Origin: Candidatus Poribacteria bacterium
GTDB taxonomy: Bacteria; Poribacteria; WGA-4E; PCPOR2b
Assembly (NCBI GenBank): GCA_965222435.1
Contig: OZ244950.1
Location: 1,707,273-1,771,272, forward strand
Direction of reading: 5' to 3'
DNA: 64,000 nucleotides
Position 1 is the stretch's first letter, and the number at the start of each line of letters is the position of its first letter. Shown here one piece after another: positions 42,054-43,091 of this stretch. Under the pieces are notes generated by a model, which was not told the DNA's origin, made no database searches, and saw only the letters and a program-made list of their open reading frames with translations. Both the position numbers and the translations under genes were made by a program.

Positions 42054-42095
42054 CAGTAATCTCATTTGGAAACAGTATTGACTTGGAGGGACACA

Positions 42096-43091
42096 ATGCC
42101 ACGCACTTTAATTTTTTGCATCACGATTGTTTTTACATTCATAACTGTCAGCGCAATAAGCGCGGAGGAGAACCAGATGGAAACATTCAAAGACCTGAAA
42201 GTTGGCATGGCAGCACCAGATTTCACGCTCAATGATGGAAATGGAGCCGCCCATAGCCTGCGCGATTATCTAGGGGAAAAGAATGTCGTCTTGGCGTTTT
42301 ATCCCAAAGACTTCACCGGCGGCTGAACGACAGAACTCCGCTCACTCCGGGATGAGTTGAGCCAGATTCAGGGGACAGATACGGTCCTTTTGGGAGTTAG
42401 CGTCGATGATGAAACCTCTCATAAGAAGTTTCAAGAGGAAGAAAATTTTGGATTCCCTCTACTCGCTGATACAGAATTCGCAGCCAGCAAGGTCTATAGC
42501 GGCATCATGGAAAGGTTTCAGGCTTCTAATCGATCGACCTTCATTATTGATCAAGCGGGATATATTCGCGCAATAGATCGAAACGTAAACACACAAACGC
42601 ACGGCGAGGATCTCGTCAAACTGATCAATGAAAGCATTCCCGGACCAATTCAGGTCGGGCAGCCCGCACCAGATCTTATCGCTTCTGATCAGGACGGCAA
42701 AACGTATCAACTCAGCAGCTTTGAAGGGAAAAAGAACGTTGTGCTAGCGTTCTATCCCAAAGATTTCACAGACGGCTGAACGGCAGAAGTCTGCTCGCTC
42801 CGGGATGAGTCGAGTATATTCGCCGAACATGATACGCAGGTCTTTGCAATTAGCGTACAAGATGCAGCGTCTCACAAAAAGTTTGCTGAAGAGAACAATC
42901 TTAACTTTCCATTGCTTGTGGACACAGGACGCCACATTAGTTTGCTCTTCGGTGCAACGGACAAACCGGAGGGCTTGAGCAGTCGCATAACGGTTGTCAT
43001 CGACAAAGACGGACAGATTATCAAACTCGATAAACAGGTCAACGCGAGGACGCACGGCAAGGACCTAGCCGATTTCTTTCAGTCGATGTAA
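42096..43091 (+). CDS. tandem two-domain Bcp/PrxQ-type peroxiredoxin with two in-frame TGA codons: candidate double selenoprotein
   Basis: ORFs 42066..42326 and 42357..42779 plus 42780..43091 are one frame; TGA at 42324..42326 and 42777..42779 follow FYPKDFTGG / FYPKDFTDG where Bcp has the peroxidatic Cys; second domain keeps a resolving Cys (U-TAEV-C); signal peptide at N-terminus; start at ATG 42096 after ggaggg. Confidence 0.7.
42340..42362 (+). promoter_or_regulatory. candidate SECIS hairpin 1
   Basis: gcuca-cuc-CGGGAU-gag-u-ugagc starting 14 nt after UGA (U=+1, stem from +17). Confidence 0.45.
42793..42815 (+). promoter_or_regulatory. candidate SECIS hairpin 2
   Basis: gcucg-cuc-CGGGAU-gag-u-cgagu at identical offset; outer stem A-U replaced by G-C relative to hairpin 1. 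Confidence 0.45.

Follow-up and report, generated by a model that had tools for sequence, protein, structure and literature searches.

Positions 42,096 to 43,091 of the analysed window (64,000 nucleotides of a Candidatus Poribacteria genome) form, with a probability that we put at about 88%, a single gene encoding an exported tandem two-domain Bcp/PrxQ peroxiredoxin (Prx) in which the peroxidatic residue of each domain is selenocysteine (Sec). The plus-strand frame is open from 42066 to the TAA at 43089-43091 except for a TGA at 42324-42326 and another at 42777-42779, and the codon tabulation described below showed that it is kept without extra stops in 69 loci. Two ORF fragments, ending ...NVVLAFYPKDFTGG and ...NVVLAFYPKDFTDG, had been proposed in the initial annotation to be joined by reading through both TGA codons, and re-reading the frame bears this out, since each TGA is preceded by ...VVLAFYPKDFT(G/D)G and translation continues as TTELRSLRDE... 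past the first and TAEVCSLRDE... past the second. As to the extent of 42066-43091 given there, the frame holds and the start probably does not: the ATG at 42096, with a GGAGG at 42085-42089 upstream of it, is a likelier start than the TTG at 42066. The elements of the gene and of its 5' end are the following:

42096..43091, plus strand: complete coding sequence of the putative tandem Sec-peroxiredoxin, 331 codons followed by TAA; residues 77 and 228 are read as U.
42085..42089, plus strand: Shine-Dalgarno-like GGAGG, 6 nt before ATG 42096, read from the sequence.
42096..42164, plus strand: predicted Sec-type signal peptide, MPRTLIFCITIVFTFITVSAISA, proposed from its residue pattern, with cleavage likely after SAISA.

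A hydrophobic N terminus with an AxA-like site occurs in most homologs and appears as a low-confidence helix in the structural model considered below; from these sequence features, the protein is probably exported.

The Pfam search identified two AhpC-TSA domains spanning the stops (E=5e-71), which are 48% identical to each other. Peroxiredoxins universally hold their peroxidatic Cys in the motif PxxxTxxC, and 1-Cys forms of Bcp exist, so that the lack of a resolving Cys does not bar membership of this subfamily. The read-through translation of each domain carries the corresponding motif, arranged as follows:

42192..42635, plus strand: Prx domain 1 (Bcp/PrxQ fold), motif PKDFTGGU, conserved Arg146, Arg at +5 and no resolving Cys.
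42645..43088, plus strand: Prx domain 2 (Bcp/PrxQ fold), motif PKDFTDGU-TAEV-C, conserved Arg297.
42792..42794, plus strand: TGC codon of Cys233, the resolving Cys, at +5 from Sec228; Cys in 69/69 loci, aligned with the resolving Cys of the S. tokodaii Prx 2ywn.

Alignment of the read-through product to solved Bcp/PrxQ structures and to Cys-containing homologs placed both TGA codons at the position of the peroxidatic Cys, as the initial annotation had claimed, and its assignment of the Cys five residues past the second TGA to the Bcp resolving position is likewise confirmed by the alignment with 2ywn (FTQVCTKEMCTFRD) and by the invariance of this residue. Arg146 and Arg297 are invariant as well. 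At the +5 position of domain 1, only 23 of the 69 loci have a Cys, and the window has an Arg. Moreover, the motif Thr of domain 2 is replaced by Gly in 52/69 genomes (PxxxGxxU, e.g., FYPRDFGRGU; L015-L075) while the resolving Cys stays invariant, which hints at a functional divergence of this domain; the window protein keeps the Thr in both domains.

Assignment to the Bcp/PrxQ subfamily is supported by the NCBIfam model NF006960, with a score of 168 bits against a cut-off of 140, whereas the PrxU model NF040737 gave 130.8 bits, below its equivalog cut-off of 270. The AlphaFold (AF2) model of a homolog 72% identical to the window protein (P0002; pLDDT, 83.8; pTM, 0.82) shows two Prx folds, although it carries the Trp artefact discussed below at the Sec sites, where its active-site geometry is not interpretable. 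The top PDB matches to this model retrieved by Foldseek were Bcp1 (3drn), a BCP, and AhpE, with target TM-scores of 0.85 to 0.87; among the top 50 PDB matches, all covered a single domain, and none was a tandem Prx.

The codon present at both active sites was tabulated locus by locus for 69 two-domain loci, namely, the window, 66 GTDB species-representative Poribacteria genomes, and two metagenome contigs. TGA occupies both sites in all 69 loci, far beyond what chance would give, and neither a Cys codon nor a different stop appears in any of them:

42324..42326, plus strand: UGA 1, candidate codon of Sec77, at the peroxidatic position of domain 1; TGA in 69/69 loci, Cys in distant homologs.
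42777..42779, plus strand: UGA 2, candidate codon of Sec228, in the peroxidatic site of domain 2; all 69 two-domain loci have TGA here, as do the paralog and single-domain forms.

No additional in-frame stop was found between the two TGA codons in the 69 loci, and the frame past the second one remains open for 104 to 111 codons. The proteins encoded by the two-domain loci are 54 to 91% identical to the window protein, and in their alignment invariant residues are scattered through all three segments delimited by the TGA codons. The 70 best loci (L006-L075) in the scan of GTDB species representatives all belong to Candidatus Poribacteria, the closest one being a PCPOR2b genome with 91% amino acid identity; every sponge-associated Poribacteria genome in the analysis retains the two-TGA arrangement.

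Because both TGA codons occur in 69/69 loci, with an open frame downstream and conserved residues, sequencing error, pseudogenisation, and separate truncated genes are excluded; relatives with TGC or TGT at these positions were not found, nor were relatives with separate truncated genes, which the initial annotation had named as a result that would speak against it. A pseudogene, or an assembly or sequencing error in which the TGA codons are mutated or misread Cys or Trp codons, might be suspected from the splitting of the ORF by gene callers and from public annotations that are truncated or show W. In particular, 17 seemingly full-length homologs in a database of 5.8 billion proteins carry Trp at both sites (P0001-P0017). 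The DNA underlying them reads TGA (L001:817-819 and 1270-1272; L002:295-297 and 748-750), so these residues are an artefact of gene calling, in which a metagenomic caller picked genetic code 4 on short contigs. The two TGA codons are identical in 69 independent assemblies from differing studies and technologies, and an origin by error or gene decay is thus effectively refuted.

Besides the two-domain gene, Poribacteria contain variant forms. A paralog (L003:10001-10999, L004, L005, and L058:3402-4304) has Ser in place of the peroxidatic residue of domain 1, encoded by TCA, a single step away from TGA; its domain 1 motif is degraded to FCPTELLVGS, and this domain is apparently catalytically dead, while domain 2 keeps the Sec and the resolving Cys. 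Both paralogs are held by the metagenome-assembled genome RHO1_bin_11 (L022 and L058). A single-domain Sec form, similar to domain 2 and lacking a signal peptide, occurs in Poribacteria RHO2_bin_7 (L074:10001-10477).

Downstream of each TGA, the entropy of synonymous codon choice collapses at codons +5 to +13. Leu at +7 is encoded by CTC in 69/69 sequences at site 1 and in 68/68 at site 2, against 1.6 to 2.0 bits at other Leu positions, and at site 2 Asp +9 is GAT in 69/69, Glu +10 is GAG in 69/69, and Ser +11 is TCG in 60/61. This constraint coincides with conserved hairpins with G-rich loops, which begin 13 to 15 nt past the TGA codons and show some compensatory changes. In the window they are as follows:

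42340..42362, plus strand: SECIS-like hairpin 1, GCUCACUC-CGGGAU-GAGUUGAGC, whose 3' arm carries a bulged U and whose stem starts 13 nt past the UGA, in the register of the clade of the window.
42793..42815, plus strand: SECIS-like hairpin 2, GCUCGCUC-CGGGAU-GAGUCGAGU, with a 6-nt loop on a bulged 8-bp stem that begins 13 nt past the UGA.

At site 2, RNAalifold yielded one consensus hairpin with an 8-bp bulged stem and a CGKGAU loop, in which 99.4% of the alignment cells are paired, compared with at most 39% once the pairing partners are shifted against each other; two pairs show compensatory changes (C-G to U-A, and G-U/A-U/U-A). At site 1, a single RNAalifold consensus was not found, since the register of hairpin 1 differs among clades, and two explicit registers were then tested. 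The clade of the window uses the register seen at site 2, and in the majority clade (C/G)UCGCUC pairs with GAGCGA(G/C) around an 11-nt loop, with 89% of the cells paired, compared with at most 52% when slid, and with C-G/G-C swaps at the outer pair. Covariation at the hairpins is modest, because the region is nearly invariant. With regard to stability, hairpin 1 does not surpass shuffled sequence (z = +0.29), and the fold of the window sequence at hairpin 2 (-19.1 kcal/mol) stands out modestly (z = -1.85); no match to the Rfam SECIS family was obtained over the Prx region, either at the gathering threshold or at E values up to 10. It follows that the case for SECIS elements rests on conservation and not on energy. 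A G-containing apical loop shortly past the UGA, as in bSECIS-type stem-loops, can be recognized in the sequence at both sites, and in their spacing, their bulged U, and the richness of the apical loop in G these hairpins presumably fit the bacterial SECIS consensus (E. coli fdhF and the bSECISearch model).

UGA is not reassigned genome-wide, since 12 of the window's 43 genes with Pfam support end at a TGA and TGG serves as the Trp codon 201 times. This bears on the reading that the two UGA codons are decoded as Trp, Gly, or Cys instead of Sec, either through genome-wide use of code 4 or 25 or through local near-cognate suppression. The choice of code 4 by gene callers on short contigs would agree with it, as would the fact that tRNA-Sec and selB were not seen directly in the window or in the loci searched. 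However, Trp or Gly at the peroxidatic site would be inactive, a Cys product would predict TGY in at least some of the 69 loci, both sites are followed by constraint at the RNA level and by hairpins, and SelA, SelB, and SelD have been reported in Poribacteria; we consider the insertion of a standard amino acid very improbable.

As for the Sec-decoding machinery, ARAGORN detected no tRNA, including tRNA-Sec, in the window or in 72 loci; the 64-kb window contains no sel genes, and a search of about 1.4 Mb of related loci with SelB and SelD of E. coli as probes gave no specific match. The sole SelB match (L082) was rejected, as it covers the GTPase domain only and lies in a non-Poribacterial locus. 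The counts of SelA/SelB/SelD COGs reported for three Poribacteria genomes are 2/1/1 in WGA-3G, 2/1/1 in bin70, and 4/1/2 in bin44 (Slaby et al. 2017, Table S4, PMC5649159), and WGA-3G corresponds to one of our loci (L032), which carries the double-TGA gene. Furthermore, an N-terminal fragment of selA (L024:2-397, minus strand) shares its contig with the tandem gene in one Poribacteria metagenome-assembled genome, at a distance of about 2.5 kb; it matches TIGR00474, is 38% identical to E. coli SelA, and is named L-seryl-tRNA(Sec) selenium transferase [Candidatus Poribacteria] by NCBI. On two long-read contigs, selA is split by frameshifts (L087:3035-4434 and L088:10001-11414). Decay of the gene was rejected as an explanation in favour of long-read frameshift or assembly error, which is probably the cause, given that 54 to 56% identity to E. 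coli SelA is kept and that the neighbouring UvrD gene in L088 is fragmented too. A second selenoprotein candidate in the window, described below, adds to this evidence. Overall, the indirect evidence for a Sec-decoding trait in Poribacteria is good, and a lack of the Sec machinery, which the initial annotation had also named as adverse to its reading, is not borne out by the published COG counts for the phylum.

With Sec as the preferred reading, the gene could operate as follows. Each in-frame UGA would be followed by a SECIS hairpin within the coding region, with a G-rich apical loop and a bulged stem starting 13 nt downstream, and SelB carrying Sec-tRNA(Sec) would bind this hairpin, so that Sec is inserted and translation does not terminate. 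The resulting precursor of 331 residues would be exported via its signal peptide, and each PxxxTxxU site would reduce hydroperoxides through a selenenic-acid intermediate. In domain 2, the invariant Cys at +5 would resolve this intermediate by forming an intramolecular selenenylsulfide, in the manner of atypical 2-Cys Bcp; domain 1 lacks a resolving Cys in the source genome and would have to be regenerated either by a reductant acting on it directly or by domain 2.

The need to recode twice in each chain should reduce the amount of product. PMC4513850 gives an efficiency of only 30 to 40% for Sec recoding in E. coli, and two sites would leave roughly 10 to 16% of full-length product if Poribacteria behave similarly. 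It could therefore be supposed that the UGA codons mostly terminate translation and that the functional products are truncated (e.g., residues 1 to 227, with domain 1 and half of domain 2), the full-length protein being a minor, selenium-dependent form. Termination at UGA 1 would, however, remove the catalytic residue itself, the segments past the UGA codons are under clear protein-level conservation in the 69 loci, and the paralogs retain a Sec domain 2 even where domain 1 appears dead; we regard predominantly truncated products as very improbable.

It is possible to hypothesize, as a tentative and rather doubtful extension, that the two domains form a self-contained selenium redox relay and are not redundant peroxidases. 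Domain 1, with a canonical PxxxTxxU and usually without a resolving Cys, would act as a 1-Sec peroxidase, and domain 2, with its invariant U-x4-C pair and the catalytic Thr lost in 52/69 genomes, would resolve the selenenic acid of domain 1, taking the role that the TlpA-like CxxC domain plays in the Prx-TlpA fusions of Armatimonadota. If this were true, the protein would be a Poribacteria-specific fusion of Prx and reductase, extracytoplasmic and obligately dependent on Sec, and its gene would be a naturally occurring example of a single bacterial mRNA in which UGA is efficiently recoded twice. A possible division of labour between the two Prx domains is part of the main value of the gene.

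Sec-containing Bcp-type peroxiredoxins (COG1225, TxxU) are an established family with one Sec, prominent in marine metagenomes (PMC9312934, PMC13188914). The statement of the initial annotation that Sec-containing peroxiredoxins are known is thus correct, and its description of the gene as unusual applies to the tandem two-Sec architecture and not to a Sec Bcp-type Prx in itself. With this family, in the classifications of Zhang and Gladyshev, the window protein shares the Bcp/PrxQ fold, a putative Sec at the peroxidatic position in PxxxTxxU, a SECIS-like element inside the coding region, and a prominence in marine microbes; different from its one-Sec members, it has two fused Prx domains, each with its own putative Sec and SECIS, as well as a predicted signal peptide, and no Cys form of the tandem gene occurs among the 69 loci.

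Among the Cys-based proteins, archaeal Bcp1 (3drn) is 35 to 36% identical to each domain, with the target TM-scores given above. Domain 2 shares with E. coli BCP, Bcp1, and the S. tokodaii Prx (3drn and 2ywn; atypical 2-Cys PrxQ) the spacing peroxidatic residue-x4-resolving Cys and the conserved Arg; those proteins are, however, Cys-based, single-domain, and cytoplasmic, and domain 1 of the tandem protein lacks the resolving Cys. PrxU of Eubacterium acidaminophilum (NF040737) is also a Sec-dependent peroxidase with a thioredoxin fold, but it has a single domain and belongs to a different Prx subfamily; the window protein scores 131 bits for its model, against the cut-off of 270. The "redoxin domain-containing proteins" of Armatimonadota and other taxa that combine Prx with a TlpA-like domain (P0023-P0036) resemble the window protein in having an N-terminal signal or anchor, a first Bcp-type domain with 30 to 35% identity, and two thioredoxin-fold modules in one exported chain; they differ in that the first domain uses Cys and the second, instead of being another Prx, is a thiol-disulfide oxidoreductase of the CxxC type. 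PprX, a cell-envelope peroxiredoxin reduced via ScsB/TlpA (PMC3322552), is a precedent for an extracytoplasmic peroxiredoxin fed by a membrane electron transporter, although it is Cys-based and single-domain; comparison of the gene neighbourhoods revealed no ScsB- or DsbD-type gene linked to the tandem gene.

Other bacterial double selenoproteins are named in PMC13188914, including UxxU Prx-like proteins, MbdU, and MduS. Compared by means of the motif table of that review, these likewise have two UGA-encoded Sec residues in one polypeptide; in the tandem protein, the two putative Sec residues are 151 residues apart, one per duplicated catalytic domain, each with its own SECIS-like element. The GOS study reports Prx-PP2C and other fusions and no Prx-Prx tandem, our literature search found no description of a Prx-Prx protein with two Sec residues, and NCBIfam has no dedicated model for it. 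What is new, then, is the tandem duplication with two Sec codons and two SECIS-like elements, the predicted signal peptide, and the strict conservation throughout the phylum.

The window contains a second selenoprotein candidate on the opposite strand:

12513..13070, minus strand: second selenoprotein candidate, Prx-like AhpC/TSA, with TGA at 12930-12932; the AhpC-TSA match spans the TGA (E=1.3e-18).

Its motif is FWRGAY-U-PKD, and homologs in Chloroflexi, Acidobacteria, and Atribacteria have CPKD at this site; a 7-bp hairpin lies at 12903-12920, 12 nt past the UGA. Close relatives show W at the TGA position, which, by analogy with the tandem gene, would correspond to TGA in their DNA, and Poribacterial entries are shortened to a 132-aa tail. 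Two further stretches with in-frame TGA codons, at 24.4 to 25.2 kb and at 16.7 to 17.2 kb (both on the minus strand), were rejected, as they are not selenoprotein-like.

The database entries seen for both Sec gene candidates of the window are thus fragments or code-4 "Trp" proteins, which points to a systematic annotation problem, and the code-4 "W" artefact could in turn be mined for genes with multiple Sec codons. Moreover, the tandem gene would extend a selenoprotein family listed with a single Sec by an architecture that has two and is strictly conserved across the phylum. It would also offer a natural system with two coding-region SECIS elements that arose by duplication, 453 nt apart, in which to study how efficiently bacteria recode twice per mRNA and how SECIS elements co-evolve with the overlapping protein sequence. 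In biological terms, it points to a selenium-dependent extracytoplasmic peroxide defence in dominant sponge symbionts, and such a dependence on selenium agrees with reports that SelA and SelB are enriched in the genomes of sponge symbionts.

The order aroA-prx-aroK is found only in the five to six closest genomes; elsewhere the neighbours of the tandem gene are GFO/IDH/MocA, PhyH, YebC, and RuvCAB genes, and comparison of the gene neighbourhoods of the loci revealed no conserved neighbouring gene for a reductant. A thioredoxin-reductase-like flavoprotein (Pyr_redox_2, 322 aa) is encoded at 3391..4359 (plus strand), unlinked to the tandem gene, and could be part of a cytoplasmic reducing system. 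The intergenic region past the tandem gene (43092..43365) contains nested inverted repeats, one with arms of 30 nt (43133-43162 and 43275-43304) and one with arms of 19 nt (43208-43226 and 43244-43262); a canonical terminator was not found in this region.

As regards the remaining gene content, the Pfam search of the window found many PhyH, GFO/IDH/MocA, ankyrin, LRR, and TPR genes, a set that pointed to Poribacteria, as the scan of GTDB species representatives then confirmed. Two tandem paralogs at 44061..45239 and 45337..46536 (plus strand) combine ankyrin repeats with an HExxH-like motif (VHELGHAxGLGD). They are missing at the matching position in the closest relatives, where aroK is directly followed by efp, and they resemble the eukaryote-like repeat proteins that are characteristic of sponge symbionts. 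A PyrR binding site (RF00515, 54.5 bits) at 38491..38618 (minus strand) lies upstream of HD-domain, pyrR-like, and dihydroorotase-like genes on the minus strand, and an IS605-family OrfB/TnpB gene with a Cas12f-like TNB domain occupies 57067..58389 (minus strand).
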